From Ostreococcus lucimarinus (taxonomy: Eukaryota), in NCBI GenBank assembly GCA_000092065.1, contig CP000581.1: a DNA stretch of 64,000 nt. One strand, 5' to 3'. A program made the position numbers and the translations under genes. The number at the start of each line of letters is the position of its first letter. Position 1 is the first letter of the stretch. The notes under the pieces are model-generated. The model searched no databases and was not told where the DNA came from. It was given only the letters and a program-made list of their open reading frames with translations. Positions 3,063 to 62,410 of this stretch are shown here, piece after piece.

Positions 3063-3065
3063 CGA

Positions 3066-4253: not shown

Positions 4254-4404
4254 AACGACGTCCACGGCGCGTTTCAAACATTCCGGTCACGCGTCGTTCC
4301 ATCCTTCCGCTCGATCGCCGTCATCGACCCCCATCGTCGCTCGCTCGCCTCGCCGCTCGCCGCGCCGCGTCCGCACAAACCGTCGCCCGTTCGCGACGAT
4401 CGCG

Positions 4405-34123: not shown

Positions 34124-34336
34124 CGTCACCGCGCGCGCGCGTGTGCGCAAACAGTGACGCGATGTTTACGGACGGCGACTCGCAAACACCCGGGTGTGAG
34201 GGGGGGGGACGAAACGAGACGTCGAACGCATCGACGACGCGCAATCGTCGACGCGCGCGACCGAACGAACGCGCGAACGCGCGAACGCGCGCGCGCGAAG
34301 ACGGACGGACGCGAACGCGGGGCGTCGACGCGCGCG

Positions 34337-36124
34337 ATGCATCTCAGGGCGCTCGCGATCGACGCGCTCGGACTCGTCGCGCCGCGATCGGTGGCGATTC
34401 AGGATTGGCGATTGCTGATTTCGTTGCAGGCGCTGCGGGGACTGGTGGCGTTTTACGTGCTGTACTCGCTGATCAACGGGAAGACGTACCTGCAGCAAGA
34501 GGTGCCGCACGGAACGATATCGAACATCGGGACGTCGACGGAGTATTTCGATGGACTCGTGGATAAGCACGCGTTTCACGCGCCGGGCGACGGCGCGACG
34601 ACGACGGTGACGGCGTCGAACGGGGTCTCGCGAACGTTTGATTTGATGCCGTGCAGCGATGCGACGGCGATCGACGCGGCGTACAAGTTTAATCGGTCGT
34701 TTGGGTTCGAGTTCGATCACTTGATGTGCGCGTTTCTCGACTCGGACGAACTCGTGAGGGAGTTCCCGAGCGGCGGGATTTTCGTCACGACGCACGTGTA
34801 CTACAAACTCGTCTACCGAAATTACCTCTCCGGCGGTTCGGCCGCGACGTGCGCGGCGGATACCTCGGGTCTCACGGTCGGGAGTAACCCGATCTTCACG
34901 AACGAAGGCGTACCTCTTACGGTCCCTTTGCGGAAAAAGCTCGGCGACGTCTGTTACTACTCCAAGGAGTTTTCGTACCTACCGGTCGCGCCCGAGGCCA
35001 TAGAAATCAGGATTGATCACACGTACGACACCGCTTCGGGCGTAAAAGCCGGCACGAATCCTCCGGTTTACGTTCGACGCGCTGGAAGCGACGTGGACAT
35101 CAAGACATTCGCCGCCGGCGAGTCTGTCCGTCTCACCGTGGAAGAGATTCTCGAAGCCGTCGGCGTCGATTTGGACAAGCGTTACGCCGAAATCGATTCC
35201 GTGAATGAGTTGTTCGGCCAAGGAGTCGATGCTGCGAACACTCCAAAAATCAGGACGGGCGGTATGCGCGTCATCGCCAAGATGCTCTACTACAACTACA
35301 ACCTCGACGGCAAAAGAAGCGCGACGGGCTCTCACGAACCGTACGCCGTGCTCGAGTTGACTCCTCGCCTGGCGTGGACAACTTTGGGCCAAGACGTCAC
35401 TCATCGCGTTCCCAGCGAAGGTGAGCTCGCAGAACCCGTGAGTTTCGGCAGCGGGAACTCGGGACGACCGAAAGATAATTACTATTCCGACTGGGAACGT
35501 TACGGTATTTACGTGGAAGTTTCCTCCGCCGGCATCATCGCCACCTTCAACTTGGTGTACTTTGTGAATGTGCTCGTTTCGGGTCTCGTGCTCTTCGGCG
35601 TGTCCCAGATCCTGTGCATCCTCATGGCGACAACGTGCTTTGGCGCGAGATCGAAGATGTATTCTCGCATGCTGTACGAGCGCACGCACTTTGAACGCAA
35701 CATCGCAGCCTACGGCGTTCAAGCAATCATCGCCGCTCAAATATTCAAGAACAGCGGCAAAACCGACGCGCTCACGGTCGATGATCTCACCGACCTACTC
35801 GAGTCGGCGTTCTCCCAATCGAAGGATGCGGAGAAGGGTGCAAACGTCGTCGTCGATGCGAAGCGTGCGTTTTCGCGCGACGAGTTGAAGCAAATGGCGT
35901 ACTACATCATTCGCTCCGGCAACTTTGAAGCGGTCGAGAAATACACAGAAAAACGCCTTCACCTCGGCGTCGACGAAGTCCACGACAAGACGATCAACAT
36001 GAACGAGTTCATCGATCTCGCCACCAGCGGCGCGATCGACGTCCCGCTCGTCAAGTCTATAATCCACTCCAACGGAGTTGGCCAAATCGAGGACTCGACG
36101 CCGTCGCCAGCCGCGGCGGCGTGA
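34337..36124 (+). CDS. two-TM membrane protein with large extracytoplasmic domain, possible P2X-like trimeric channel fold (low confidence)
   Basis: TM1 about residues 25-50, followed by NGKTYLQ (compare P2X YEKGYQ). About 440-aa ectodomain. TM2 YGIYVEVSSAGIIATFNLVYFVNVLVSGLVLFGVSQILCILMAT resembles P2X pre-TM2/TM2 (YGIRFDI..GKAGKFDIIPT.INIGSGLALLG.ATVLCD). It lacks the canonical ATP-binding KxKG/NFR motifs and the 10-Cys pattern. The track ORF from 33752 is antisense to MATE upstream of the ATG at 34337. Confidence 0.55.
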   Translation: MHLRALAIDALGLVAPRSVAIQDWRLLISLQALRGLVAFYVLYSLINGKTYLQQEVPHGTISNIGTSTEYFDGLVDKHAFHAPGDGATTTVTASNGVSRTFDLMPCSDATAIDAAYKFNRSFGFEFDHLMCAFLDSDELVREFPSGGIFVTTHVYYKLVYRNYLSGGSAATCAADTSGLTVGSNPIFTNEGVPLTVPLRKKLGDVCYYSKEFSYLPVAPEAIEIRIDHTYDTASGVKAGTNPPVYVRRAGSDVDIKTFAAGESVRLTVEEILEAVGVDLDKRYAEIDSVNELFGQGVDAANTPKIRTGGMRVIAKMLYYNYNLDGKRSATGSHEPYAVLELTPRLAWTTLGQDVTHRVPSEGELAEPVSFGSGNSGRPKDNYYSDWERYGIYVEVSSAGIIATFNLVYFVNVLVSGLVLFGVSQILCILMATTCFGARSKMYSRMLYERTHFERNIAAYGVQAIIAAQIFKNSGKTDALTVDDLTDLLESAFSQSKDAEKGANVVVDAKRAFSRDELKQMAYYIIRSGNFEAVEKYTEKRLHLGVDEVHDKTINMNEFIDLATSGAIDVPLVKSIIHSNGVGQIEDSTPSPAAAA

Positions 36125-47279: not shown

Positions 47280-50200
47280 TTACTTGTCCTCGTTCGACAT
47301 GTCGAGGAGCTGCGTGAAATAATCCACCGCGCTGGCTGCGGTTTTCTTCGTTTCGTTGGTGTTTGTCTTGCGCGTGATGACGCTGCGCAGGGATGAAATG
47401 GTCATCGATTTGACGACGTCTTCGGCTTCGACGTCTTGAACCGAAATACCCATGGACTCGGCGTATTTGGATTTGAGATCGTCGAGTTCGCCGGCCACTT
47501 TTTTGGACTCTTCGAGAACCTTGAGTTCTTCATCGCTCAGGTTCACAAAGTCGCGGAGACGCTTTTTGGCCTCGTCGAGGGAAACGCGGAGGCGCTTGAT
47601 CTCCACGGCGTACTCATCGCGTTCGGTTGCCGTCTGCTCAAACGAACGTTCGAGCGCAAGTCTGTCGGCCTCGAGCTGCTTTTCTCGATCGGAGACGCTA
47701 AGCCTGAGGCTCTTTTCGGCTTTAGACTTTTCTTCCGCGACGATTTTGAGCGCTTTTTCGCGACTCGCTTTGAGCGCCGCGTCCTTCGCCGCGATGGTGT
47801 CTCTCAGTCGTGCCTCGTACGATTCGCGAAGCTTGGCGATATCGATCTCGCTTCGCTCGCGAAGTTCCTTGAGACTCGCTTGAGTTTTGGCTATCTCTTC
47901 GGCGTAAGCGTCAGCGTCGCCACGTCTGCCGGTCGAGGTCGCAACTTCCTTCTCAACAATCTTTTCAACCTCAACAATCTTCTCGACGACCTTCTCGACT
48001 ATTTGCGGCGGTCCGCCTGTTTGCCCGGCGCGCTTTTCCGCGTCGCGCACAGCCCGTTGAAGCGTTTCAACTTCTTGACGGAAGTCTACGACTAGCTTAT
48101 CAAACTGCGCGTTGAATTTGGCTTCAATTTCCAGATCACGATCGTTGAGCATGTTTTCAAAGTTGGCAATTTTGGCCTTGAGTTTATCATTCGCCTTCTT
48201 CGCCGTCGCACGAAGCGCCGCTTCAGATTTTGAGCGTTCGGCGGCGGCGATGGCCAATTGATCGCGCAACGCCTTCTTCGCTGTGGTTTCCGCCTCTCTC
48301 AGAGCCGCGATATATTCACGCTGTGCCGCGAGCTTGGCACTCTCGGTGAGCTTCTTTGCCGCCGCGATTTCAGTGCGCAAAGTCTTTTCCATACGGTCGC
48401 GCTCCGCCTTCGCAGCTTCCATCGCGGACGCCAACTTCTGGTTCGCAATCTTCTCAGAGTTTGCGAGCTGATTTTCGAGTGTAGAAACTTTGGATTCCAA
48501 AGCCTTAAGCTTTGATTCGGATTCGATGCGCATTGCTTTCTCTACCGCCTCGATTTCAGCCTTTTGTGCCGTCTTAAATTCGCTCAGTTTCTTCACGGCG
48601 GCTTCAAGATCACGCTCGAGCGTCGCAACCTTGCTAGGCGATTGAGCGGGCTTGCTCTTCTGTATGACTGACTCCGTCGGTGTAGACGCGTTCGTCTCCT
48701 TCATCGAGCGATTCGACGCGCCGAAGAGACGTTCAAAGAGCGAAGGCGCGGAAGTCTTCGCCGCTTCTTCAGCCGCCAACGCCGCTTCTTCAGCCGCCAA
48801 CGCCGCATCTTCCTTCGCTTTCGTAGCTTCTTCCTTCGCTGCAAGCAACTGATCGCGCAAAGTAACCATTTCACTTTGCGCCGCACGAAGCTTACGCTCG
48901 GCGTCTTCGCGCGCGGCTCGTTCAGCTGCAACCTTGCCTTTGTTGAATTCAAAGAGAGGGCGCTGAACGGAGGTTTCCGATACCACCTTCGATGACGAAG
49001 ATTGCTTCTTTGCGACATCGAGTTCATCAGTGAGTGCACCAACGCGTTGCTCATAAAAGGCGATCTTCTCTGCGAGAGTTACTTGCTCGGATTTCAATCT
49101 TCGCTCGAAGTCTTCCTTCATCAAAAGCATCGAACGGGACCATTTCGCCTCCGCTTCGGCAAACTCGGCCTGAACACTCGCAAGTCGATACTGGACATTC
49201 TCCATTTTCTTCGCCTGTTCCGCATAATCCCTGTGCGCACGTCTGATTTGCTTCTCAAGTTCGCGTTCGCGTGACTTGAGTTGCTTGTTCATTAGCTGCG
49301 CCGAGTCTCGTACGCGTTCTTTGAAGTCTTCGCGCAACGCGGCGAGAAGAACTTCAACCTCTCGCGTGTGCTCCTTGCTTTCTTGAATCTTTTGGTTGAA
49401 TTCTAAAGTAGCATCAGCCATTGTTTGAGCGACAGCGCGAACGATCTCGTCATTGTGCTTTTCCTTCATCGCGTTCATTTCAGAAATTCTAGAACCCAAC
49501 ATCGCCTGACTATTTTGATACTTGACCAAAATATCTGCTCGTTCGGATTCAAGACTGCGCACATTCGCTTCGTCGGCCTGAACACTCGCAAGTCGATACT
49601 GGACATTCTCCATTTTCTTCGCCTGTTCCGCATAATCCCTGTGCGCACGTCTGATTTGCTTCTCAAGTTCGCGTTCGCGTGACTTGAGTTGCTTGTTCAT
49701 TAGCTGCGCCGAGTCTCGCACGCGTTCTTTGAAGTCTTCGCGCAACGCGGCGAGAAGAACTTCAACCTCTCGCGTGTGCTCCTTGCTTTCTTGAATCTTT
49801 TGGTTGAATTCTAAAGTAGCATCAGCCGTTGTTTGAGCGACAGCGCGAACGATCTCGTCATTGTGCTTTTCCTTCATCGCGTTCATTTCAGAAATTCTAG
49901 AACCCAACATCGCCTGACTATTTTGATACTTGACCAAAATATCTGCTCGTTCGGATTCAAGACTGCGCACATTCGCTTCGTACGACTTTGCTTGATCTTT
50001 CCAAGCAACGGAGTCGAATTGCCATGCGTCACGTTCTTGCTCCAACTTGGCCATTTTACGAAGCATTTGTGCGACGGCAGCAGTCATCTCGTCATCCTCA
50101 TCAAACGACGCCGAGGCGTTTTCGGTAAGTCGCGCCAAATCGAGCGCATACTTTGTCTCTGCGTCGGCAACCGCACGTTCTCGCTCTTCGTTCAGGCGCG

Positions 50201-53200
50201 CCACGGTTACCGCGAGCTGTTCTTGAGCATCAGCTTGGAGCTTGGCGATGGCTGCGACGGTATCATCGCCGCTTTTAAGCTTGGACTCAAGCTCGGAGAT
50301 GCGTTGCTTGTACTCTTTGACAGTGGTTTCACTCTCGGCGGCAAAAGTAGAAGATGCGTTACTGACGGCGTCCTTCAACTCTGCTTTGAGTGCCGCGATT
50401 TCATTCGCTGAAGCTGAACTTTTTTGTTCAAACTCCAATGTCAGACGCGATATTTCCTCACGAAGCTTGACTTCGCGCTCTTGCGCATCGCGTGCTTCAG
50501 TCTCTGCAGCTGATAACAGCACAGTTTGATCTTTGATCTGAGCATTTACAGCATCAAGGGACGCGTCCTGTCCCTGGGAAGCGCCGATGATGCTAGCAAA
50601 AATTCCACCTCGATCGCCTTTCGCCTTGTCCAAAACAGCCTTGTATTTCTCTTCAGCCTTTTGCATGCCCTTGCGAGCTTTTTCTAGTTCCTTTTCTAGT
50701 CGTCGCTCGGAATCCAGCTTCTCAGACTGTAGTCTTGTCGTGACCGATAGCACATCTTGATCACGCTCAGCGCGGACGGCTTTGATTTGCGCTTCCAAGT
50801 CGAAGATATGCTTTTCCACGTCCGGGCTGCTCCTCTTAGCTTGCGTAGCGAACTCCGCTTCAAGTTTCTCAAGCTTTTCTTGAAGCGCGTCGCGCTGCTT
50901 CTTGAGACGCTTGACTTCGCCAGTGCTTCCCTCGAACTTGTACGTGACAGATTGGGGAAGGGTGTACTTAACTACACTCTTCTCACGCTTTTGCTGTTGT
51001 TTGCGTTTAAACGCATCCAACTCCTTGCGAGCCTCAGTGACTTCAAGCCTGAGCTCTGCTTCCGTCTCCGTCGCCGTGCGCTTGAGAGTCTTATTGAGCT
51101 TCTTTATCGTCGATTCGTAACCTTCGGAAACCTCTTCTAGTTGAAGTTCCAGTCGCTTGACTGTCGCCTCGTACTCCGCGGCGATTTCATCAGCCTGTAT
51201 CTTCGCAGACCTCTCAACTTCTTCGAGTTTTGCTTTCCACAAGTCCTCAGCTTGCTTTACCTTTGTAGTTTCATCGCTCGCGAGAGAAGTTTTCATGGCG
51301 TTTTGCAGGGTCTCGATCTCGAGAGTCTGAGCCGTGATCAGCGCCTCTTTTTCTTCTTGGAAGAGCTTTGACTCCTGCGATACGCGGTCATCCGCTTCCG
51401 ACTTGACCAAAGCAACCAACGCTACTCGATCAGCCTCCGCTGACGCCTGAATTTCAGCGACGGCTTGGATAAGCTCTCGTTCGGCGCTTTCGTTGGCATC
51501 GGCGAGTTGCTTCTTCAGAGCTGCAACTTGGTCATCAATCGTAGCGGTCTCTGTGTCCGTTTTCGACGTCGATTTCATGTTCGCGATAGTTTGCTCGTAG
51601 AGCCGCTTGGACTTTTGCATCTCGTCAAGTTGGGATTCAAGGCGTGTGACTTGCGCTTGAAGCGCGTCGCGCTCCTTCTCTAGCGATGCATCTACCTTGT
51701 TGCCAGTAAACTTATATGTCACTGTTTGAGGCAGCGTGTACTTGATGCCACCCTTACTTTTTTGCTTGAGGTCTTCGAGGTCCTTTTTCGTCGATTCGAC
51801 TCGTTTTCTAAGTTCACTTTCGCTAGACTTAGATGCTGCGAGCTGCGCTTTAATTTTCTTCATCTCATCGTCGTCACTCGACACCCACGCAGTAGAAGAT
51901 TGAAGCGCATCAATTTTACCTTGATACTCTTGCTTCAACCGATCAATCTGTGCATCCTTGGCTGCTTCGACCTCACGAATCTTCTGTTCCCAGAAAATAG
52001 ATGATTGAGCCTCGGCAGTGGCTACCTCAGCCGTGAACTCAACCATAGCGTCTGCGGACTGTTTTATCGCTTCGTTTCGCATCATCGCATACAGCGCGCG
52101 GCGCTCGCCAGCGCTTGAACGAGACGAAGCGTCGCGTTGCGCCAGCTCGGAAGACGCAAAGGCCTGAATACTAGCGACGGCCTCGACGAGATGCTCCTCG
52201 GCGATGGCTTTTTGCTCTTGCAAACGCCACGACTGCTCAGACAGCTGCTTCTTGAGATCCAGGATCATGGCATCCTTCGCCGCTGACTCGTCGCTCCCAG
52301 CGGTCGTCGCCGCGGGCACGGCGGGCGCCGCGCGTGCAGACGCCTTGAGTGACTCAATCTTCGCGTCATACTCTCGCTTGGTCTTCTGCATTTCCGTCAG
52401 CTGCGACTCGAGCGCGCTGATCTTGGCCTGCTGAGCCTTCATCAGCTTGTCGTCCGTGGAACCGCCCTCGAATGTGTACTTGATAAACTGCGGAAGTGTG
52501 TACTTCACACCGTTCTTCGACGCAGTCTTGAGCGACTGAAGTTCGGCTTTCGCCGCGTCGACTTGACCTCGGAGTTCGAGTTCGATCGACGAGCGCTTGG
52601 AGAGCTGCGCCTGCAGGTCGGACACGACGCTCGAGAGACCATCACTACCAGACGCCTTGGACATTGATGCCTTGAGCTCCTCGAGTTCACGCAGCGATGC
52701 GTCGAGCTGCGCCTTCTCGGCCGCCGCCGCCGCTTGCAGCTTGGCATTATCAGCGAGGATCGTCGCGACAGCCGCCTCAACTTGCTCTTCGGCATCGTTT
52801 TCGGCATCCTGCAGCTTCTTGTTGAGGGCGTCGATTTCGGCGCTTCTGTCAGAAACACCGGTCGTAGTGCTCGCCTTACTGGCCGCCCGGACTCGTTCGA
52901 TCTCTTCGTTGTGTGCCTTCTTCAGAGCAACCACGCGCTGCTCAAACTGAATCTGCGCGTCACGAATGGCGTCGTTCACTTGAGCGCTCGTGTCCACAGG
53001 TGAACCGGACGACGCGCGCAATGACGCCTCCAGCTGTTCGTTCTCAGCCTTGAGCTCAGCGACGGCCTCGACGAGCTGCTCCTCGGCGATGGCTTTTTGC
53101 TCTTGCAAACGCCACGACTGCTCAGACAGCTGCTTCTTGAGATCCAGGATCATGGCATCCTTCGCCGCTGACTCGTCGCTCCCAGCGGTCGTCGCCGCGG

Positions 53201-56200
53201 GCACGGCGGGCGCCGCGCGTGCAGACGCCTTGAGTGACTCAATCTTCGCGTCATACTCTCGCTTGGTCTTCTGCATTTCCGTCAGCTGCGACTCGAGCGC
53301 GCTGATCTTGGCCTGCTGAGCCTTCATCAGCTTGTCGTCCGTGGAACCGCCCTCGAATGTGTACTTGATAAACTGCGGAAGTGTGTACTTCACACCGTTC
53401 TTCGACGCAGTCTTGAGCGACTGAAGTTCGGCTTTCGCCGCGTCGACTTGACCTCGGAGTTCGAGTTCGATCGACGAGCGCTTGGAGAGCTGCGCCTGCA
53501 GGTCGGACACGACGCTCGAGAGACCATCACTACCAGACGCCTTGGACATTGATGCCTTGAGCTCCTCGAGTTCACGCAGCGATGCGTCGAGCTGCGCCTT
53601 CTCGGCCGCCGCCGCCGCTTGCAGCTTGGCATTATCAGCGAGGATCGTCGCGACAGCCGCCTCAACTTGCTCTTCGGCATCGTTTTCGGCATCCTGCAGC
53701 TTCTTGTTGAGGGCGTCGATTTCGGCGCTTCTGTCAGAAACACCGGTCGTAGTGCTCGCCTTACTGGCCGCCCGGACTCGTTCGATCTCTTCGTTGTGTG
53801 CCTTCTTCAGAGCAACCACGCGCTGCTCAAACTGAATCTGCGCGTCACGAATGGCGTCGTTCACTTGAGCGCTCGTGTCCACAGGTGAACCGGACGACGC
53901 GCGCAATGACGCCTCCAGCTGTTCGTTCTCAGCCTTGAGCTCAGCGACGGCCTCGACGAGCTGCTCCTCGGCGATGGCTTTTTGCTCTTGCAAACGCCAC
54001 GACTGCTCAGACAGCTGCTTCTTGAGATCCAGGATCATGGCATCCTTCGCCGCTGACTCGTCGCTCCCAGCGGTCGTCGCCGCGGGCACGGCGGGCGCCG
54101 CGCGTGCAGACGCCTTGAGTGACTCAATCTTCGCGTCATACTCTCGCTTGGTCTTCTGCATTTCCGTCAGCTGCGACTCGAGCGCGCTGATCTTGGCCTC
54201 TAGCGCGTTAACATTCGCAGTGTTTTCCGGTGTTTTTCTAGACGTGTCTTCGAATTTGTAAGTAATGCTTTCCGGCGAAGTGTACTTGACGGTCTGCTGT
54301 GCGGATGCTATCTGATTTCGGAGATCACGCTCAACTTCGGTTCGCTCGCGCAGCTGCCGCTGGAGCTCCGTAATCTCCGCCGACACGTCCACGCCCGGTG
54401 TGTCTGATTTGATTAAAGCCTTCAGCTCTTCGAGCTCGCACAGGGACGCGTCGAGCTGCGACTTTGCAGCGTCAACCGCGGCTTGCAGCCGGTCTTTATC
54501 AGCAACGATTTCCGCTACCGCGCGCTTTACTGCCTCTTCGCGTTCTTTTTGCGCATCTTCCAACTGCTTATTGAGCGCGGCGACCTGCGCGTCCACATCT
54601 TTGCTACTACTCGAGCTGGATGAGGCTTGTAAATCCGCAATCTTTTGTTCGTACGACTGCCTGAGCTGCTTCAGCTGTGCATCCTTCATGAGCTCAACGT
54701 CCTTGATCTTTTTCTCCCAGTATGCAGGAGATTCCACAGCGTGGGTGCTGGCCTTACTGGCCGCCCGGACTCGTTCGATCTCTTCGTTGTGCGCCTTCTT
54801 CAGAGCAACCACGCGCTGCTCAAACTGAATCTGCGCGTCACGAATGGCGTCGTTCAGCTGAACTCTTGCTTCGGCAGTTGAGCTGGACGATGCGCGCAAT
54901 GAAGCCTCCAGCTGTTCGTTCTCAGCCTTGAGCTCAGCGACGGCCTCGACGAGCTGCTCCTCGGCAATTGCCATGTTCTCAGACAGCTGCTTCTTGAGAT
55001 CTATGATTTCTTCGTTAGCGTCAAACTGGTTCAATCTCTTAACCGCCTCGGCGCGCATCATTTTGTACATCGCGTTACGTTCTCCAGTTGTGGATTTAAG
55101 AGCTGACTCGAGTTGTACCTTGCTAGCTTCAGCAAGCGACTGGATTTCAGCAACCGCTCGAACGAGCATATCATCATACATCTCCTTGAGCGTAGTTACA
55201 TCCTGTTTTACCGCGTCCTGCTCTGAAGCAAGATTCGATTTAACGTTGATGCGCTCGGCTTCAAACTGTGCGAGAAGCTGAGCTTTTGACGCTTCACTCT
55301 CGTTCAACTTGGAGATAGCGTCACGTGCGCGATCCTCCGCTTGCGTGACTCTTCTATCCGACTCTCTACGTGCGTCTTCTAATGCTGTCGCGTGAGCAGC
55401 GGCTGTAGTCTGTATCGCCATCTGATGCGCCTGTTCGAGGGCTTTTATTTTGGCTGGTGCGTCATCCTTCGTCGCGCTCCTTTTAAGGCGCTCTAGCTCT
55501 TCGTTGTGCGCCTTCTTCAGAGCAACCACACGCTGCTCAAACTGGATCTGCGCGTCACGAATGGCGTCGTTCATCTTCTTGCTACTCGAAACTTCGCTTA
55601 TGGCAACTTCACTTTGAAGCCGCGTCAAAGTTCGCTCGCTCGCTTTGCGCATCTCAGAGTCGAACATCGACTTGAGCGCACGACGCTCGCCCGCAACTCC
55701 ACGCACAGCTTCGTCACGAACTGCGTCAACGTCCACGTCGTTTCGCATTTCGACCGGAGATACCGCGACCTGAGATTTCTTTGAAACCTTGACTCGTTCG
55801 ATCTCTTCGTTGTGCGCCTTCTTCAGAGCAACCACGCGCTGCTCAAAGTTAAGCTGCTCCTCACGGAGTGCCGCGTTAAATTGATCGACGCTCAGCGCGC
55901 TCTGGCTCGGCTTTGAGGCGTTACTCGCCTTGACTCGTTCGATCTCTTCGTTGTGCGCCTTCTTCAGAGCAACCACGCGCTGCTCAAAGTTAAGCTGCTC
56001 CTCACGGAGTGCCGCGTTAAATTGATCGACGCTCAGCGCGCTCTGGCTCGGCTTTGAGGCGTTACTCGCCTTGACTCGTTCGATCTCTTCGTTGTGCGCC
56101 TTCTTCAGAGCAACCACGCGCTGCTCAAATTTAAGCTGCTCCTCACGGAGTGCCGCGTTGAATTGATCGACGCTCAGCGCGCTCTGGCTCGGCTTTGAGG

Positions 56201-58307
56201 CGTTACTCGCCTTGACTCGTTCGATCTCTTCGCTGTGCGCCTTCTTCAGAGCAACCACGCGCTGTTCAAACTGGATCTGCGCGTCACGAATGGCATCGTT
56301 CGCTTGAGCGCTTACATCGACAACCGATGTGACTGGATCGGCGCGCTCAACTGGAGCGCCGCGCTCGATGTTGCGTCCAGGACTGGCCTTGTTCATCTCC
56401 GAATCAAGAAGCGCCTTTAGCGCTCGTCGCTCCCCAGCGGCACCGCGCATCGCGCTGTCGTACTTGGCCACGAGAGAGCTAATTTCAACTTCAGCCTCGG
56501 CACGTATTTCGGCAATCTTCGAAAGGAACTCGTCCTGAGTCGTCGAGTCACTGTCTTGAATCAGTCCCGCCACCGGCTCCCGTACTTTTGAGAGCGTGGC
56601 GGCAAAATCGGCCCGCTCTTTCACAATTCTCTCGCTATAAGACGCACAAATCGCTTTCAGTTGATCTTCGAGGAATGACAGGCGTTCTCCAGAGGTGACC
56701 TTCGCAAGAGCCAATTCTGACCGAAGCGTCGCCAGGTGCATGCGCTGCAGGTCACGTGATGCGCGATACTTGCTTGCTTCACTTCTTCCAAGTTCGCGTT
56801 CAGCGCGAATCAAGCCACGCGCGGCTCTAATTTCGATTTCATGACGCGTCGCCATAGATTTGTTCACCTCTTTCGCTTCGTGCAAAGCATCCTCAGCAAT
56901 ATTCAGCGCTTTCTCAAGCCTCTCGATGCTGCCCTTCAGCGTAACCTCTTGCGCGTGGAAGGCAGCTTCGTTTGCTTTGATGGCGGTTTCGTGCTCCTCT
57001 TTCATCTTTACGAGCACACGTTGAAGTTCTTCGGTGCTTTGTCCTCCCGCGCCGGCGCTTGAAAGCGAATCGATTTGCACATCCTTCATGTGGCGCTTGA
57101 AGTCGTCGTTCAGAGTCTTGAGGTTATCATTCTTCTCCTTCTTCATGGCGCCGAGCTTTTCGATTTCGGTTTCAAACTCCAGAATCATTGACTGCCGCAG
57201 TACTTCTAAGCGTCGCACCGCGCTACTATCGCTTTCCAAAGGCTGAGCAAGACTGGGCAAACGTTCCAATTTGGATCGCACTTTTTGCACGTCAACGCCA
57301 GAGCGAGAGATACCGAAGCCGATTGCCGCAGCGGCAACTGCAGCCGCAGACGCGATACCAGCTACCGCAGCGGTTTTTGCAACGACTGGCGGAAGCGCAT
57401 TATTGTGACGCAAAGTCATCGAGGTCGCATTTACCGCTGGTAAATTTTGAGCGAACGGGGCGACTGTTGCCGTTTTCACCACATTTTTTGGACGCTCAGC
57501 CACGATCGAGGTCGTCACCTGCGGCACAGTCGGCGACGCCGCGCGCCGATCGGCTGAAAAACTGTGTTTACCTCCGATAAGAGCCACGGCCGTCGCGATA
57601 CCACCGTAAATGAGCTTGGTCTCGGTATCGAATCTCTCAGTCGCGCGCATCATCGTCGTCGCGAGGGATGTCTGTTGTATTTTTTTCCGCACGATGGACG
57701 TCGTTTCTACCGTCTTCTTCACAATACTCGTCGTGGCCTTCATCCCAAGCGCCACGACTTCGTTCGCATCGCTCGATCGTTCGCATCGTTCGCATCGTTC
57801 GCATCGTTCGCATCGCTCGCATCCCTCGCCATCCTCATCGTCGTGCTCGTGCTCGTGCGATTCTTCGTACTCTTCGTACGCCTCGTCCGACATCCACGAG
57901 AACGACGCGAACCCGGGCGCGCTGTCGAACCCAGCCATACCAACTCTCCCCGCCCCCGGTCGCCGAACTTCACGCTCTTCGTCCTCGTCTTCCGCGCCCC
58001 CCCCGACCTCGAGCTCGAGCACTATCTCGTCCACGAGCTTGTATCCGCGAAAACTCGCCGTCCCGACGCCGTTTTCAAACATCGCGCGTCCGATCTCTCC
58101 CGGCTCGTCCCCTCGTCCCGCGCACGTCACCACGCGCCCGACTCGCATCGACGCCCTCCCGCGCGCGCTCGCCCGCGCGTCGCTCGCGCTCGCCCCTCGC
58201 GTCGCGTCGCCGCGCCGCTTCCCTCCCTCTCGCGTCGTCTCCCGCCGCCCCAGCGCGAGCGCGCCGCGCGCGCGCGTCGACATCACCCCGCGATCGACGA
58301 TCGCCAT
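47280..58307 (-). CDS. giant coiled-coil protein (3675 aa) with internal tandem repeats and possible N-terminal hydrophobic anchor. Start uncertain
   Basis: Uninterrupted 11 kb ORF; heptad-rich E/K/A/L/Q composition throughout. Recurring blocks QFEQRVVALKKAHNEEIERV and VKYTLPQ..YKFEG. N-terminal hydrophobic segments (LIYGGIATAVALIGG, AGIASAAAVAAAAIGFGI). CERCERCERCER tract. Real ATG at 58307, but downstream Mets (e.g. MFENG) are also possible. Confidence 0.7.
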   Translation of the reverse strand: MAIVDRGVMSTRARGALALGRRETTREGGKRRGDATRGASASDARASARGRASMRVGRVVTCAGRGDEPGEIGRAMFENGVGTASFRGYKLVDEIVLELEVGGGAEDEDEEREVRRPGAGRVGMAGFDSAPGFASFSWMSDEAYEEYEESHEHEHDDEDGEGCERCERCERCERCERSSDANEVVALGMKATTSIVKKTVETTSIVRKKIQQTSLATTMMRATERFDTETKLIYGGIATAVALIGGKHSFSADRRAASPTVPQVTTSIVAERPKNVVKTATVAPFAQNLPAVNATSMTLRHNNALPPVVAKTAAVAGIASAAAVAAAAIGFGISRSGVDVQKVRSKLERLPSLAQPLESDSSAVRRLEVLRQSMILEFETEIEKLGAMKKEKNDNLKTLNDDFKRHMKDVQIDSLSSAGAGGQSTEELQRVLVKMKEEHETAIKANEAAFHAQEVTLKGSIERLEKALNIAEDALHEAKEVNKSMATRHEIEIRAARGLIRAERELGRSEASKYRASRDLQRMHLATLRSELALAKVTSGERLSFLEDQLKAICASYSERIVKERADFAATLSKVREPVAGLIQDSDSTTQDEFLSKIAEIRAEAEVEISSLVAKYDSAMRGAAGERRALKALLDSEMNKASPGRNIERGAPVERADPVTSVVDVSAQANDAIRDAQIQFEQRVVALKKAHSEEIERVKASNASKPSQSALSVDQFNAALREEQLKFEQRVVALKKAHNEEIERVKASNASKPSQSALSVDQFNAALREEQLNFEQRVVALKKAHNEEIERVKASNASKPSQSALSVDQFNAALREEQLNFEQRVVALKKAHNEEIERVKVSKKSQVAVSPVEMRNDVDVDAVRDEAVRGVAGERRALKSMFDSEMRKASERTLTRLQSEVAISEVSSSKKMNDAIRDAQIQFEQRVVALKKAHNEELERLKRSATKDDAPAKIKALEQAHQMAIQTTAAAHATALEDARRESDRRVTQAEDRARDAISKLNESEASKAQLLAQFEAERINVKSNLASEQDAVKQDVTTLKEMYDDMLVRAVAEIQSLAEASKVQLESALKSTTGERNAMYKMMRAEAVKRLNQFDANEEIIDLKKQLSENMAIAEEQLVEAVAELKAENEQLEASLRASSSSTAEARVQLNDAIRDAQIQFEQRVVALKKAHNEEIERVRAASKASTHAVESPAYWEKKIKDVELMKDAQLKQLRQSYEQKIADLQASSSSSSSKDVDAQVAALNKQLEDAQKEREEAVKRAVAEIVADKDRLQAAVDAAKSQLDASLCELEELKALIKSDTPGVDVSAEITELQRQLRERTEVERDLRNQIASAQQTVKYTSPESITYKFEDTSRKTPENTANVNALEAKISALESQLTEMQKTKREYDAKIESLKASARAAPAVPAATTAGSDESAAKDAMILDLKKQLSEQSWRLQEQKAIAEEQLVEAVAELKAENEQLEASLRASSGSPVDTSAQVNDAIRDAQIQFEQRVVALKKAHNEEIERVRAASKASTTTGVSDRSAEIDALNKKLQDAENDAEEQVEAAVATILADNAKLQAAAAAEKAQLDASLRELEELKASMSKASGSDGLSSVVSDLQAQLSKRSSIELELRGQVDAAKAELQSLKTASKNGVKYTLPQFIKYTFEGGSTDDKLMKAQQAKISALESQLTEMQKTKREYDAKIESLKASARAAPAVPAATTAGSDESAAKDAMILDLKKQLSEQSWRLQEQKAIAEEQLVEAVAELKAENEQLEASLRASSGSPVDTSAQVNDAIRDAQIQFEQRVVALKKAHNEEIERVRAASKASTTTGVSDRSAEIDALNKKLQDAENDAEEQVEAAVATILADNAKLQAAAAAEKAQLDASLRELEELKASMSKASGSDGLSSVVSDLQAQLSKRSSIELELRGQVDAAKAELQSLKTASKNGVKYTLPQFIKYTFEGGSTDDKLMKAQQAKISALESQLTEMQKTKREYDAKIESLKASARAAPAVPAATTAGSDESAAKDAMILDLKKQLSEQSWRLQEQKAIAEEHLVEAVASIQAFASSELAQRDASSRSSAGERRALYAMMRNEAIKQSADAMVEFTAEVATAEAQSSIFWEQKIREVEAAKDAQIDRLKQEYQGKIDALQSSTAWVSSDDDEMKKIKAQLAASKSSESELRKRVESTKKDLEDLKQKSKGGIKYTLPQTVTYKFTGNKVDASLEKERDALQAQVTRLESQLDEMQKSKRLYEQTIANMKSTSKTDTETATIDDQVAALKKQLADANESAERELIQAVAEIQASAEADRVALVALVKSEADDRVSQESKLFQEEKEALITAQTLEIETLQNAMKTSLASDETTKVKQAEDLWKAKLEEVERSAKIQADEIAAEYEATVKRLELQLEEVSEGYESTIKKLNKTLKRTATETEAELRLEVTEARKELDAFKRKQQQKREKSVVKYTLPQSVTYKFEGSTGEVKRLKKQRDALQEKLEKLEAEFATQAKRSSPDVEKHIFDLEAQIKAVRAERDQDVLSVTTRLQSEKLDSERRLEKELEKARKGMQKAEEKYKAVLDKAKGDRGGIFASIIGASQGQDASLDAVNAQIKDQTVLLSAAETEARDAQEREVKLREEISRLTLEFEQKSSASANEIAALKAELKDAVSNASSTFAAESETTVKEYKQRISELESKLKSGDDTVAAIAKLQADAQEQLAVTVARLNEERERAVADAETKYALDLARLTENASASFDEDDEMTAAVAQMLRKMAKLEQERDAWQFDSVAWKDQAKSYEANVRSLESERADILVKYQNSQAMLGSRISEMNAMKEKHNDEIVRAVAQTTADATLEFNQKIQESKEHTREVEVLLAALREDFKERVRDSAQLMNKQLKSRERELEKQIRRAHRDYAEQAKKMENVQYRLASVQADEANVRSLESERADILVKYQNSQAMLGSRISEMNAMKEKHNDEIVRAVAQTMADATLEFNQKIQESKEHTREVEVLLAALREDFKERVRDSAQLMNKQLKSRERELEKQIRRAHRDYAEQAKKMENVQYRLASVQAEFAEAEAKWSRSMLLMKEDFERRLKSEQVTLAEKIAFYEQRVGALTDELDVAKKQSSSSKVVSETSVQRPLFEFNKGKVAAERAAREDAERKLRAAQSEMVTLRDQLLAAKEEATKAKEDAALAAEEAALAAEEAAKTSAPSLFERLFGASNRSMKETNASTPTESVIQKSKPAQSPSKVATLERDLEAAVKKLSEFKTAQKAEIEAVEKAMRIESESKLKALESKVSTLENQLANSEKIANQKLASAMEAAKAERDRMEKTLRTEIAAAKKLTESAKLAAQREYIAALREAETTAKKALRDQLAIAAAERSKSEAALRATAKKANDKLKAKIANFENMLNDRDLEIEAKFNAQFDKLVVDFRQEVETLQRAVRDAEKRAGQTGGPPQIVEKVVEKIVEVEKIVEKEVATSTGRRGDADAYAEEIAKTQASLKELRERSEIDIAKLRESYEARLRDTIAAKDAALKASREKALKIVAEEKSKAEKSLRLSVSDREKQLEADRLALERSFEQTATERDEYAVEIKRLRVSLDEAKKRLRDFVNLSDEELKVLEESKKVAGELDDLKSKYAESMGISVQDVEAEDVVKSMTISSLRSVITRKTNTNETKKTAASAVDYFTQLLDMSNEDK
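49167..49980. repeat. 408-bp tandem duplication (2 copies) inside the giant coiled-coil gene
   Basis: Copies starting at about 49167 and 49575 read near-identically (..ggcctgaacactcgcaagtcgatactggacattctccattttcttcgcctgttccgcataatccctgtgcgc..). Duplicated six-frame ORFs 49002/49425/49833 share sequence. Confidence 0.8.
52176..54198. repeat. 885-bp tandem repeat, 2 full copies plus about 250-bp partial third, essentially identical, inside the giant coiled-coil gene
   Basis: Identical six-frame ORFs offset by exactly 885 nt (52204/53089/53974; 52505/53390; 52597/53482; 52734/53619). Direct reading confirms identity from cgacggcctcgacgag onward. Confidence 0.9.
55788..56350. repeat. 141-bp tandem repeat (about 4 copies), each encoding a 47-aa unit FEQRVVALKKAHNEEIERVKASNASKPSQSALSVDQFNAALREEQL(K/N)
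   Basis: cttgactcgttcgatctcttcgttgtgcgccttcttcagagcaaccacgcgctgctcaaa recurs at about 55788, 55929, 56070 and 56211. Confidence 0.85.
57761..57825. repeat. 9-bp repeat (CGTTCGCAT)x5-6, encoding (CER)n on the minus strand in the giant gene N-terminal region
   Basis: Direct reading: cgttcgcatcgttcgcatcgttcgcatcgttcgcatcgctcgcatc. Confidence 0.85.
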
Positions 58308-58797
58308 CCTCGCGCGCGCGCGCCCGGCGTCTCCCCGTATCGCGCGCGTCCGACGACGCCACTAATCCAAAACCCGACCGATCGCGTCCCGCGCGCGCGC
58401 GTCCTCGTCGCGTCGCGTCGCTCCGATCGCCCGCGTCGCTCGAATCGCGCTCGCGCGCGTCGGCGTCGACGCGCGTCGATCACTGCGCCGCGCGGCGGCG
58501 CCGCGCGCGACGTCCGCGGTCGATCCGCGTCGCGCGGTCGGTCGGTCGGTCGCCGTTTTATCGCGGCGCGCGCGCGCGCGTCACATGGCGTTCGAGTCGG
58601 TACACTACGACGTCCGCGCGCGTCGTCGTCGCCCCTCGCGCGACGGGTCCGATCGCGACGTCGTCGTCGTCGTCGACGCGCGATCGAGGGTCGACGTCGG
58701 CGCGCGATCGACGCCGCGCGTTTCGCGTCGCGCGCGGGCGCGGCGATCGCGCGCCGACGCGCGATAGGGTCGCGGCGGCGCGAGACGACGACGCGCG

Positions 58798-61110
58798 ATG
58801 GCGACGACGACGACGATGCGCGTCGCGGACGCGAGAGGCGCGATGACGCGAGGCGGCGCGCGATGCGCGCGACGCGCGACGGCGCGACGCGCGACGCGCG
58901 CGACGGCGCGACGCGCGACGGTGGCGAACGCGGGGCAGACGATGTACGATAAAATCATCGACGACCACCGCGTGCGAACGCAGGACGACGGGACGCTGCT
59001 GCTGTACATCGATCGACACATGATACACGAGGTGACGTCGCCGCAAGCGTTCGAGGGGCTGCGAACGGCGGGACGGGCGGTGCGACGACCGGATAACACG
59101 CTGGCGACGGTGGATCACAACGTGCCCACGAGCGACCGGAGCGGGTTCGAGAGCGCGGAGACGTTCATCAAGGAGATGGACTCTCGCGTGCAGGTGTTGC
59201 AGCTGGAGGAGAACGTGGAGGAGTTTGGGGTGACGTATTTCGGGATGGACGATAAGAGACAGGGGATCGTGCACATCATCGGACCGGAACAGGGGTTCAC
59301 GCTGCCGGGGACGACGGTGGTGTGCGGGGACTCGCACACGGCGACGCACGGCGCGTTCGGGGCGCTGGCGTTCGGAATCGGGACGAGCGAGGTCGAACAC
59401 GTGCTCGCGACGCAGACGTTGTTGCAAAAGCCGTCGAAGAATATGCGAATCACGATCGATGGGAAGCTCGGAGATGGGGTGACGAGTAAGGATATTATTT
59501 TGCACATCATCGGCGTCATCGGCACGGCGGGCGGAAACGGCTCCGTGATTGAATTCGCGGGCGAAGCCATTCGCTCGCTCTCCATGGAGGCGCGAATGAG
59601 TATTTGTAACATGGCCATTGAAGGTGGGGCGCGCGCGGGTATGATTGCCCCGGATGAGATCACGTTCGAGTACCTCAAGGGTCGTCCGATGTCGCCTCGA
59701 GGGGAGACGTGGAATCGCGCGGTCGAGTACTGGAAGTCTCTCGCCTCCGACGCGGATTCCAAGTACGATCGCGAGATCGTTATTCCGGCGTCCGATATCG
59801 AACCCACGGTGACTTGGGGGACGTCCCCGCAAGATGTCGTTGGGATTTCGGGCATCGTTCCCGATCCGAAGGACTTCGACGAGGCGCGCGGCAAGTCGAT
59901 GCAACGCGCGCTCGATTACATGGGTCTGACCCCGGGCACTAAGATGCAAGATGTCGTCGTCGACAAGGTGTTCGTCGGCTCGTGCACGAACGGTCGCATC
60001 GAAGACGTGCGCGCGGTCGCCGCGGTGGCCAAAGGTAGAAAGGTTGCCGACAACGTGTACGCCATGGTCGTCCCGGGTTCGGGCATCGTCAAGGAGCAAG
60101 CCGAAGCCGAAGGCTTGGACGTCATCCTCAAGGAAGCTGGCTTCGACTGGCGCGAGCCCGGTTGCTCGATGTGTTTGGCAATGAACCCGGATAAGTTGCT
60201 TCCGGGCGAACGCTGCGCGTCAACCTCCAACCGTAACTTTGAAGGTCGTCAAGGCAACGGCGGTCGCACGCACTTGATGTCGCCGGCGATGGCTGCCGCC
60301 GCGGCCATCACGGGTAAGCTTTGCGACGTCCGCACCCTCGGCTCTGGCGCTGTCTTGACCGGCGAAGATGCTCCGGGTAAGCTCGAAAGCAAGGACTTCT
60401 TATCGGACGCCTTGGTCACTTCCCCGCCGCCGCAAAAGAAGGACAACGGTCCGGCGGGCGCGGGCGGCATGGCCAAGTTTACCACCTTGAAGGGTGTAGC
60501 CGCGGCCATGGAACTTCAGAACATCGACACCGATATGATCATCCCCAAGCAATTCTTGAAGACGATCAAGCGCACCGGCCTCGGAGTCTCTGCGTTTTAC
60601 GAAATGCGTTACGACGAGCAAGGCGTCGAACGCCCGGATTTCGTGTTGAACAACGAGCCGTACCGCAACGCCTCCATTTTGGTCGCCGGTAACAATTTTG
60701 GTTGCGGGTCTTCTCGTGAGCACGCGCCGTGGGCGATTAATGACTTCGGCATTCGATGCATCATCTCCACCGCCTTTGCCGACATCTTCTTCAACAACTG
60801 CTTCAAGAACGCCATGTTGCCAATCGTTCTCGACGAAGCCACCGTGAACACGCTCATGGCGGACGCCAACGCCAAGCAAGAGCTCGAAATCGACTTGCCG
60901 AACCAAGTCGTCATTCGATCAAACGGCGAGAAGATTCCATTCGAAGTCGACGAGTTCCGCAAGCACTGCTTGATCAACGGCTTGGACGACATCGGCTTGA
61001 CGATGCAGCAAGACGCCGACATCGCCGCGTTCGAGGCCAAGCGCACCGAAAACTTCCCGTGGCTCAACGGCGCCGGCTACGTCCAAGGCAGCGCCACCCC
61101 GGCGCGTTAA
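58798..61110 (+). CDS. LEU1: 3-isopropylmalate dehydratase, fused large+small subunits (LeuC-LeuD, LEU1-type) with organellar presequence
   Basis: [11 protein letters not shown]...[21 protein letters not shown]...[33 protein letters not shown] (LeuC, aconitase-family Fe-S ligand region). C-terminal [35 protein letters not shown]...[23 protein letters not shown] (LeuD). Single ORF of 770 aa. Real ATG. Confidence 0.9.
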
Positions 61111-61240: not shown

Positions 61241-62410
61241 TTGCCCGACATGTTCCGCCGAGCCGGCGACAAATTTGCCGCGCGAACCGCGCGCGCGACG
61301 TTCGCGCTCTTCGGCGACGTCACCGCGTCCACGCGCGTTCCGCGCGCGTCGTCTCGCGCGCGACGGTTCGCCCAACCGTCAGCCATCGCCATCGCGCGCG
61401 AATTCGCCGACGACGCGCACAATCGCGTGCGCTACCCTTCGCCCGAGGTGAAGATCGGCCAGCCCGCGCCGCAGTTCGATTCTCCCGCGTGCGTCGACGG
61501 CGATCTCGGCCGGGTGAAGCTGAGCGATTACCTCGGGAAGTATTGCGTGGTGTTCTTCTACCCGCTCGACTTTACGTTTGTGTGCCCGACGGAGATCACG
61601 GCGTTTAACGATCGCGCGGATGAATTCGAAGCGCTGAACACGAAAGTGATAGCGGTGTCGACGGATAGTGAGTACTCGCACTTGGCGTGGACGATGATGG
61701 AACGCGAACGAGGCGGTTTGGGGGCGATGCGGATACCGATCGTGAGCGACCGGACGAAGGAGATCAGCGCCAAGTACGGAGTGCTGTTCGAAGACCGAGG
61801 AATTGCGCTGAGAGGGCTGTTTATCATCGACGACGAGGGGATCGTGCAGCAGATCACGATGAATAACTTGCCCGTGGGGCGGAGCGTGGACGAGACGCTG
61901 CGGCTCGTGCGAGCGTTTCAGTACACGGCGGAACACGGCGAGGTGTGTCCGGCGGGATGGACGCCCGGTGCGCCCACGATGATCGATGATCCTGAAAAGT
62001 CCAAGACGTATTTCGAGCAACACGCTGGCGCGCCAAGTGGGGGATCGTCTTCAAGCGGCGGTTCGTCGAACGGCGATTTCGCCGCCAAGCTCACGCCCAT
62101 CGCGTCGCGCGCAGACTTCAACGCCTTGATCGCTGGACCCAAGCCAGTCGTCGTTGATTTCATGGCGAGCTGGTGCGGCAAGTGTCGACAAATCGCCCCG
62201 GAGGTCGACAAGCTCATCGATCAGTACCCGGATGTCGTCTTCGCGAAATTCGACACGGCGCACGCGGATTTGGCGCCTCTCTCCAAGGAGTTGGGCATCG
62301 AGGCCATGCCGACTTTCAAGTTTTACAAGGACGGCAAAGAAGTCAACGAAGTGATCGGTTACAAGCCTAAGCTCTTGCGCGACGCCGTTGTTGATTTCGC
62401 GGGCCATTGA
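61241..62410 (+). CDS. typical 2-Cys peroxiredoxin (AhpC/BAS1 type) with transit peptide, fused through a Gly/Ser linker to a C-terminal thioredoxin domain (WCGKC)
   Basis: Prx: [14 protein letters not shown] (peroxidatic Cys) ... [13 protein letters not shown] (resolving Cys). Linker [16 protein letters not shown]. Trx: [22 protein letters not shown]...[22 protein letters not shown]. One continuous ORF. Real ATG. Confidence 0.85.

Follow-up and report, generated by a model that had tools for sequence, protein, structure and literature searches.

A giant repeat-containing gene of Ostreococcus lucimarinus encoding a helical rod with a probable N-terminal membrane anchor

Long helical proteins that resemble the one described here in some respect include rootletin and SF-assemblin, which are alpha-helical fibrous proteins with internal repeats; the golgins (giantin, golgin-84 and the GRIP-domain golgins), which are rod-like coiled-coil tethers of 1000-3000 amino acids (aa) with non-helical breaks; and kinectin, p180 (RRBP1) and CLIMP-63, in which a very long helical rod comes after an N-terminal membrane anchor. 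In p180 there is, in addition, a long tandem-repeat array of variable number. MFP1, at about 730 aa far shorter than the protein described here, has the same order of targeting sequence, hydrophobic or transmembrane anchor and long coiled coil, although for our protein a plastid location is only conjectured. We analysed a 64,000-nt stretch of Ostreococcus lucimarinus DNA (contig CP000581.1, assembly GCA_000092065.1; hereafter the window) which carries, at 47280..58307 on the minus strand, an uninterrupted single-exon open reading frame (ORF) of 3675 codons plus a stop. The next longest ORF in the window encodes 1301 aa. A sequence-only reading of the window had proposed one long 11-kb single-exon gene with a largely alpha-helical, structural-type product, and this is borne out by the intact ORF. 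It is a genuine nuclear gene of O. lucimarinus encoding a giant genus-restricted protein.

The explanation that we favour, to which we give about even weight, is that the product is a membrane-anchored multivalent rod or scaffold, possibly targeted to an organelle, whose length changes by duplication of modules. The plainer description of it as a membrane-anchored helical scaffold has perhaps slightly better than even prospects, and would place the protein, which is uncharacterised and restricted to Ostreococcus, among the long helical scaffolds that are anchored in membranes. Two Ala/Gly-rich hydrophobic segments would anchor it in a membrane by its N-terminus, and the ~3300 remaining residues would form an amphipathic alpha-helix interrupted by short linkers at intervals of 35-70 residues. 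Pairing of the helices, probably in a dimer, may build a segmented rod of coiled-coil-like character, which if fully extended could reach ~0.5 µm, half the cell diameter. The repeated FEQRVVALKKAH helices and KYTLPxSVTYKFEG linkers are probable docking sites, and through them the protein would serve as a multivalent scaffold or tether bound to the membrane.

Distribution of the family and comparison with known proteins

One neighbouring protein is residue-identical to the O. lucimarinus CCE9901 chromosome 1 entry ABO94032.1/XP_001415740.1, and all six neighbours tested fall in clusters holding CCE9901 reference proteins. The exact 3675-aa product was missing from a collection of 15 billion proteins and no NCBI or UniProt entry over the giant gene was among the search results; in the CCE9901 reference annotation the gene may be left out or modelled otherwise. 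A literature search found nothing on the gene or its probable accessions.

Two full-length orthologues were identified, P0083 (2460 aa) and P0084 (2033 aa, in a cluster whose 40 members measure 2027-2033 aa), which are 36-48% identical to the window protein over the N- and C-terminal thirds. The neighbours of P0084 cluster with an Ostreococcus mediterraneus UniRef entry. A partial orthologue (P0078/L002, 51% identity) belongs to another lineage, and a further Ostreococcus-like lineage is represented by L046 (3452-17630 of ENA ERZ28548099 contig_27749_pilon), which has a syntenic orthologue of ~14 kb whose frame is broken many times by assembly errors. L046 also carries an extra repeat type, EVEKFNHxSxDLERIMxDD..AK.ALR.AN.EIERL, that is lacking in the window. 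The gene order, with an isopropylmalate (IPM) dehydratase gene divergent from the giant gene and an AAA ATPase gene following it in the same orientation, is shared by three other lineages, including those of P0083, P0084 and L046. Synteny, the GFDSAPGFASFSWMS motif, two Ala/Gly-rich hydrophobic segments, the FEQRVVALKK motif and a conserved C-terminal third were found together and define the family.

Our view of the distribution comes from one exhaustive HMMER search, in which a 708-column profile (A1) of the N-terminal region and the first helical segment was compared with 1.84 billion representatives. This search returned 17 proteins at E<=1e-3, among them the full-length P0083 and P0084, and all of those inspected were Ostreococcus-type. 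This suggests that the family is confined to Ostreococcus, with the reservation that fast-evolving helical proteins may escape detection by a profile search. Word-indexed searches using the N-terminal 520 aa, the C-terminal 606 aa or a three-sequence C-terminal alignment returned 2-4 unnamed fragments and no long protein, and have little bearing on distribution. When the complete protein was compared with Pfam at E<=1, only a sub-threshold match to GHMP_kinases_C appeared, and a sequence search of the PDB gave no match. Foldseek comparison of a repeat-unit model (predicted local distance difference test score, pLDDT, 58.6) against the PDB gave nothing at E<=1e-3, only generic helical hairpins.

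The protein had earlier been likened to rootletin, striated-fibre and golgin proteins, and the evidence supports none of these comparisons. Ostreococcus is a naked green alga of ~1 µm without flagella or basal bodies. The lack of flagella removes a role at the flagellar root or basal body. Whole-cell cryotomography of O. tauri described a single microtubule and nowhere mentions flagella (PMC1939878). That the gene encodes a rootletin- or SF-assemblin-type fibre protein of the flagellar root or basal body is therefore hardly credible: the resemblance is only the general one of a very long helical repeat protein, no Rootletin or SF-assemblin Pfam family matched at E<=1, and the N-terminal-profile search found no homologue beyond Ostreococcus despite well-sampled flagellate green algae. 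Furthermore, the window protein has membrane-type segments at its N-terminus and its host has no cilium, whereas rootletin and SF-assemblin have no membrane anchor.

The golgin label lacks support for other reasons. No GRIP or golgin Pfam family matched at E<=1, and golgins attach to membranes by a C-terminal transmembrane helix or a GRIP/GRAB domain, whereas the hydrophobic segments of the window protein are N-terminal only. Kinectin, p180 and CLIMP-63 differ in being metazoan, in having the anchor close to the N-terminus and in lacking the presequence and acidic domain of ~230 aa. Homology to kinectin or RRBP1 was seen neither in Pfam nor in PDB sequence matches, and the N-terminal-profile matches included nothing from outside Ostreococcus. 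In plant MFP1 a transit peptide precedes an anchor in the thylakoid, and the coiled coil, which lies in the stroma, recruits partners and positions the initiation of starch granules (PMC10801857). MFP1 was reported to be absent from Chlorophyta and found only in Spermatophyta (bioRxiv 10.1101/2024.10.03.616402). The exhaustive search with the N-terminal and first coiled-coil profile detected no plant proteins and no sequence homology to MFP1. MFP1 also bears a twin-arginine signal, and none was seen in the window protein.

The N-terminal region and the helical rod

The following features, all on the minus strand, were recognised from the N-terminus onwards.

58119..58307 (aa 1-63), minus strand: basic Arg/Ala/Ser/Thr-rich N-terminal extension, net charge +10, presequence-like, with a putative targeting role
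58005..58100 (aa 70-101), minus strand: conserved block GEIGRAMFENGVGTASFRGYKLVDEIVLELEV, kept in P0083 and P0084 and absent from the P0078/P0112 lineage
57843..57956 (aa 118-155), minus strand: near-invariant GAGxVGxAGFDSAPGFASFSWMS followed by an acidic His-rich tract (HEHEH), from an alignment of four lineages
57777..57821 (aa 163-177), minus strand: (CER)5 from a 9-bp microsatellite, TCGTTCGCA (57760-57823), in the region of the acidic His-rich tract
57570..57614 (aa 232-246), minus strand: hydrophobic segment 1, LIYGGIATAVALIGG, Kyte-Doolittle 1.81 over 15 residues
57300..57377 (aa 311-336), minus strand: hydrophobic segment 2, core VAGIASAAAVAAAAIGFGI, Kyte-Doolittle 2.05 over 19 residues (aa 315-333)
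47283..57239 (aa 357-3675), minus strand: segmented, coiled-coil-like amphipathic alpha-helical rod, from composition, periodicity and AlphaFold2

The N-terminal extension is present in four lineages, with a length of 54-70 aa and a net charge of +6 to +10, but its sequence is not conserved. It is followed by an acidic domain with a net charge of -15 to -23 across lineages; in the window protein, the mature N-domain has 36 Asp and Glu against 13 Arg and Lys. The window extension ends in ...GRVVTCA/G, comparable with ...RRATVANA/G in the presequence of the adjacent IPM dehydratase (the slash marks the putative end), and it is predicted from its sequence to be cleaved and to serve in targeting. 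The short N-terminus of P0078 had raised the possibility of a start at M54 as a general rule, which was rejected because P0083, P0084 and P0112 all have long extensions. P0083 has no further Met between M1 and the conserved block.

The small conserved N-terminal block, GEIGRAMFENGVGTASFRGYKLVDE..LEV, is missing from one lineage, and AlphaFold2 gives no confident fold for aa 70-101. By comparison, the block formed by GFDSAPGFASFSWMS and the acidic His-rich tract is common to all lineages with a readable N-terminus, with single substitutions in the near-invariant motif of P0084 (e.g., A to Y and S to T). The (CER)n tract reported by the sequence-only reading is present as (CER)5, but it is a polymorphic microsatellite and not a conserved feature: it reads CERCERCEGCERCER in P0076, is shortened in strain ERZ23495636 and is lacking from the orthologues of other species.

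Two hydrophobic N-terminal stretches compatible with membrane anchoring had also been proposed, and we confirmed that they are the only such segments in the protein and are conserved in four lineages. Segment 1 has the conserved pattern ETKxxY(A/G)GIAxAxxxI. In a scan of the whole protein, segment 2 was the sole segment with a Kyte-Doolittle score above 1.2, and its Ala/Gly-rich equivalents in the orthologues score 1.46-2.02. Its hydrophobicity suggests that segment 2 is probably a transmembrane helix. AlphaFold2 predicts the N-terminal 411 aa to be mostly disordered, with confident helix beginning at aa 360.

The composition of the protein is typical of coiled coils (15% A, 12% E, 9% K, 8% L and 1.2% P) and its longest Pro-free stretch is 621 aa. 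The earlier description of it as almost entirely heptad-type coiled coil goes too far. Spectral analysis of hydrophobic residues gave a mean power ~2x that of shuffled sequence, and 69% of residues after aa 340 lie in an analysis window with significant 3.5-residue power; however, the periodicity peaks at 3.6 residues, not 3.5, in nearly every region (3.55-3.65), and at 4.0 in the linker region at aa 3111-3240. A crude a/d occupancy score for heptads was barely above that of shuffles because of the 15% Ala content, and spectral analysis was used in its place. We modelled one repeat unit with AlphaFold2 from an alignment of paralogous and orthologous units, which gave, at low confidence (pLDDT 58.6), helices of 35-67 residues joined by short Pro/Gly/Ser linkers, with the KYTLP motif, an APAVPAATTAG tract and an SSGSPVD tract non-helical. 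These predictions suggest that the rod is probably an amphipathic, segmented helical, coiled-coil-like structure with frequent stutters. At 0.1485 nm per residue, full extension would give the 3319-residue rod a length of ~490 nm and the 4265-aa allele described below ~580 nm, as upper bounds.

Repeats, conserved motifs and module number

The repeats and motifs of the rod are as follows.

52173..54242, minus strand: 885-bp (295-aa) tandem unit, 2.3 copies, full copies 100% identical
49165..49981, minus strand: 408-bp (136-aa) tandem unit, 2.0 copies, 99% identical
55787..56310, minus strand: 141-bp (47-aa) tandem unit, 3.4-3.7 copies, with the FEQRVVALKKAH motif in each
50922..56327 (aa 661-2462), minus strand: series of diverged super-repeats of ~255-330 aa each, 12 domains by phmmer with one 295-aa unit
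52894..56305, minus strand: span of eight helix motifs, NDAIRDAQIxFEQRVVALKKAHxEEIERV, at aa 680, 727, 774, 821, 923, 1162, 1493 and 1788
54246..54287 (aa 1341-1354), minus strand: linker motif copy 1, KYTSPESITYKFED, non-helical in the AlphaFold2 unit model
53349..53390 (aa 1640-1653), minus strand: linker motif copy 2, KYTLPQFIKYTFEG, from the motif count and the AlphaFold2 unit model
52464..52505 (aa 1935-1948), minus strand: linker motif copy 3, KYTLPQFIKYTFEG, from the motif count and the AlphaFold2 unit model
51702..51743 (aa 2189-2202), minus strand: linker motif copy 4, KYTLPQTVTYKFTG, from the motif count
50928..50969 (aa 2447-2460), minus strand: linker motif copy 5, KYTLPQSVTYKFEG, near-identical to KYTLPESVTYKFEG/QG of orthologue P0083
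47283..47549 (aa 3587-3675), minus strand: conserved C-terminal end, FVNLSDEELKVLEESKKVAxELD..KSKYAESMG ... VDYF(T/K)QLLDMS, conserved in P0083 and P0081 and divergent in P0084

The 885-bp and 408-bp units are present at the numbers claimed for them from the sequence (2.3 and 2 copies). The 141-bp unit, put at about 4 copies, is also present, with 3.4 copies over 55787-56270 (3.4-3.7 over 55787-56310) and four occurrences of its motif at a spacing of 47 aa. A block said to recur about 10 times does not: the FEQRVVALKKAH core was counted eight times, and the exact 20-mer QFEQRVVALKKAHNEEIERV only three times. Two features had been overlooked. The first is the chain of super-repeats at aa 661-2462, of which the perfect 885-bp copies are the youngest members, and the second is a recurring motif, (V/I)KYT(L/S)Px(S/F)(V/I)xY(K/T)F, with five copies in the window protein. 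Orthologue P0083 has three copies of this linker motif in the form KYTLPESVTYKFEG/QG.

The helix motif is kept in every orthologue seen, much better than the surrounding rod. Its FEQRVVALKK core occurs once in P0083, once in P0084, at least six times in L046 and 8-10 times in O. lucimarinus. Comparison of orthologues showed that the KYTLPxSVTYKFEG linker and the FEQRVVALKKAH helix are both conserved far above their surroundings. Other short conserved non-helical motifs of the rod are RxLFEFNKGK and SxFExLFG, and the plan shared by the family ends with FVNLSDEELKVLEESKK ... VDYFxQLLDMS.

To compare copy number, many independent assemblies of the locus were retrieved by exact look-up of the neighbouring proteins, and the whole gene was rebuilt from overlapping loci.

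This window, reference-type: 885-bp unit in 2.3 copies; product of 3675 aa
JGI 3300047157 Ga0494219_00011, 1.13-Mb contig: 885-bp unit in 4.3 copies; intact 4265-aa ORF
JGI 3300046163 Ga0494222_0007 (L039), 1.13-Mb contig: 885-bp unit in 4.3 copies; 4108-aa ORF with a frameshift
ENA ERZ10646592 contig_23253 (L001), error-prone long contig: 885-bp unit in 4.3 copies; several frameshifts and a single 408-bp unit
Short-read metagenome scaffolds: 885-bp unit in 1.3 copies, or gaps; gene calls of 1647-3324 aa

The warning that the number of perfect 885-bp repeats might be an artefact of assembly was justified in that three independent long-contig assemblies of the same species have 4.3 copies against 2.3 here; yet the duplications themselves are real biology. 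The full 885-bp copies of both JGI contigs are identical to each other and to the window copy, the copies in L001 are 99.4-99.5% identical, and strain P0086 has at least three units of this type with small differences between copies. Of the 408-bp unit, L001 and two older JGI scaffolds have one copy, against two in the 1.13-Mb JGI contigs. The number of 141-bp units is unchanged in the long contigs, and is reduced by collapse to one copy in the short-read contig behind P0076. The JGI contigs differ from the window at ~0.2% of flanking positions and therefore represent another strain of the same species and not the same DNA. The 2.3 copies of the window may represent an allele of the strain, or identical interior copies may have been collapsed in the reference, so that the count here may be too low. 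A probable collapse, or at least an allele difference, is thereby flagged in a gene of a reference genome.

Short-read metagenome assemblies systematically truncate this giant gene. P0076, from an ENA contig of 2817 bp, is a near-identical fragment that misrepresents it in this way, and ends in ...LSLIHISEPTRPY, which we take to be translated sequencing adapter. In Ga0494222_0007, a frameshift in the microsatellite led to a gene call that begins only at M189 (4077 aa). A real frameshift allele was rejected in this case, as the change consists of two 1-nt deletions in AA dinucleotides of the microsatellite, which is typical of long-read error and most likely such an error.

Between lineages, the length of the gene product ranges from 2033 aa to that of a ~14-kb gene, mainly through the number of ~295-aa modules, and module number differs twofold both between sister species and between assemblies of one species. 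We weakly favour ongoing unequal crossing-over or gene conversion of these modules as the process that changes rod length and motif number, because the JGI strains and the window have the same copies, with no differences either inside one gene or from one to another, because the 408-bp unit is also variable, and because G+C content at third codon positions (GC3) is raised in the young repeats, as frequent conversion would predict. GC3 is 0.62 for the giant gene against 0.69-0.79 for its neighbours, and within the gene it is 0.71-0.73 in the young repeat region and 0.52-0.64 in the rest of the rod.

These comparisons also bear on whether the large ORF or its repeats could be an artefact, or the gene a decaying and functionless one. 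Such an origin is suggested by the conflict between the reference copy number and the long-contig assemblies, by the broken frames in L001, L046 and Ga0494222, and by a contig of the L002 lineage with in-frame stops. The broken frames, however, sit in error-prone long-read contigs, intact ORFs of 3675, 4265, 2460 and 2033 aa occur in independent assemblies, the 2027-2033-aa form has its 40 cluster members, and an open frame of 11 kb could not last by chance. In P0085, another contig of the L002 lineage, a sense codon takes the place of one of the TAG stops. We therefore regard artefact or decay as extremely improbable. The L002 locus itself (603-4955 of ENA ERZ1283823 k141_421203) has one conserved frame with no frameshift and four in-frame TAG stops (nt 2457, 2691, 3144 and 3579). 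Reassignment of TAG, or pseudogenisation of the gene in this lineage, was considered and rejected, as P0085 has Ser at the first TAG position, a comparison that covers one of the four positions and makes that stop, at least, particular to the L002 contig. The stops could represent a nonsense allele, or could come from a chimeric assembly or a sequencing artefact.

Subcellular location and the surrounding locus

The most likely site of the protein would be an organelle membrane, with the chloroplast favoured over the mitochondrion and the rod lying in the stroma or matrix. An organelle membrane is our first choice because the basic extension ahead of the acidic domain is conserved in its presence, because the extension resembles in style the probable plastid presequence of the neighbouring IPM dehydratase, and because the anchors are Ala/Gly-rich and only moderately hydrophobic. 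A plastid location taken by itself is tentative, well short of even. The most specific form of this proposal is that a genus-specific rod of up to half a micron is imported into the single chloroplast (or the mitochondrion) of the smallest free-living eukaryote, where, anchored in an internal membrane, it would be a multivalent scaffold or ruler that positions or partitions organelle contents such as the single starch granule or the nucleoids at division, its reach and valency set by the number of 295-aa modules, polymorphic in natural populations; we consider this quite improbable.

Several observations weigh against an imported, anchored, coiled-coil rod. Translated GC-rich upstream DNA can also produce Arg/Ala-rich N-terminal extensions, and a start at M54 in the window would leave only 13 residues ahead of the conserved block. 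AlphaFold2 did not make segment 2 a helix in its model of the N-terminal 411 aa, and its confidence was low both there (mean pLDDT 44) and for the repeat unit (58.6). The Kyte-Doolittle score of segment 2 is also compatible with a signal-anchor of the endoplasmic reticulum (ER). With a periodicity peak at 3.6 and not 3.5 residues, a canonical heptad coiled coil is not demonstrated, and antiparallel helical bundles would give a much shorter object. Finally, the ratio of non-synonymous to synonymous polymorphism (pN/pS) within the species is near 1 for the closest strains, on 10 substitutions only. Against the more divergent strain ERZ23495636 it is ~0.5 (15 synonymous and 24 non-synonymous changes), which speaks for a real gene under constraint. 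These values suggest that most of the rod is only weakly constrained, as proteins of this kind usually are, with the motifs and termini conserved.

The main rival to the organelle-targeted scaffold is a tether on the cytosolic face of the endomembranes, in which an ER-type signal-anchor would hold a rod that projects from the ER, nuclear envelope or Golgi in the manner of kinectin, p180 or a golgin-like tether of vesicles or organelles. The animal ER has N-terminally anchored giant coiled-coil proteins of this kind, segment 2 is hydrophobic enough (2.05), and the N-terminal domain is predicted to be disordered. There are also more basic residues on the C-terminal side of segment 2 (SRSGVDVQKVRSKLER), which by the positive-inside rule would put the rod in the cytosol. 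We nevertheless judge this unlikely: an ER signal-anchor has no need of a basic extension of 54-70 aa kept in four lineages, the Ala/Gly-rich anchors of two orthologues score no more than 1.46-1.75, Pfam gave no sign of the golgin, GRIP or kinectin families, and golgins are anchored at the C-terminus.

The rod could also lie outside the cell, as a fibrous type II membrane protein of the surface whose module number is under selection by prasinoviruses or grazers. Rapid change in module number among strains and species and the high within-species pN/pS would suit such a protein, and complexes and filaments that are unexplained occur on the O. tauri surface (PMC1939878). No cleavable signal peptide was found, however, and the charges around segment 2 favour a cytoplasmic or stromal rod. 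The rod is rich in Lys and Glu, free of Cys and poor in sequons, an untypical make-up for an extracellular protein of a eukaryote, and its motifs are conserved and not diversified. A surface location is thus very improbable.

If the favoured scaffold reading is correct, a membrane-anchored genus-restricted rod able to span half the cell would be a concrete candidate for the positioning and inheritance of Ostreococcus organelles. Ostreococcus is a model of a minimal eukaryote, in which the chloroplast, mitochondrion, Golgi and starch granule are each present once, and genes can be targeted in O. tauri. We see a modest chance that the protein is relevant to organelle organisation in this minimal eukaryote; if it is merely ordinary structural filler, its interest is local only.

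The ORFs that neighbour the giant gene are ordinary eukaryotic housekeeping genes, and encode a double-AAA ATPase, IPM dehydratase, an AFG1 ATPase, polyphosphate kinase, a peroxiredoxin-thioredoxin fusion and a prenyltransferase alpha-repeat protein. The divergent intergenic region of ~490 bp between the giant gene and the IPM dehydratase gene, together with the starts of both ORFs (58308-58920), consists of GC-rich low-complexity repeats of the CGACGCG and CGCGTCGCTCG types. These repeats yield long spurious ORFs on both strands, e.g., 57564-58952 (plus strand). Two products in the window are unusual for a green alga. One, at 39475-42282 (minus strand), is a complete bacterial-type polyphosphate kinase 1 with four PPK domains and a long Arg/Ala-rich N-terminal extension; the other is encoded by a 790-aa ORF at 33752-36124 (plus strand) that resembles the C-terminal part of the P2X receptor family weakly and below threshold. 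The fusion protein at 61250-62410 (plus strand) is a peroxiredoxin of 386 aa (AhpC-TSA and 1-cysPrx_C) with a C-terminal thioredoxin domain, and is conserved and syntenic in all Ostreococcus contigs seen.

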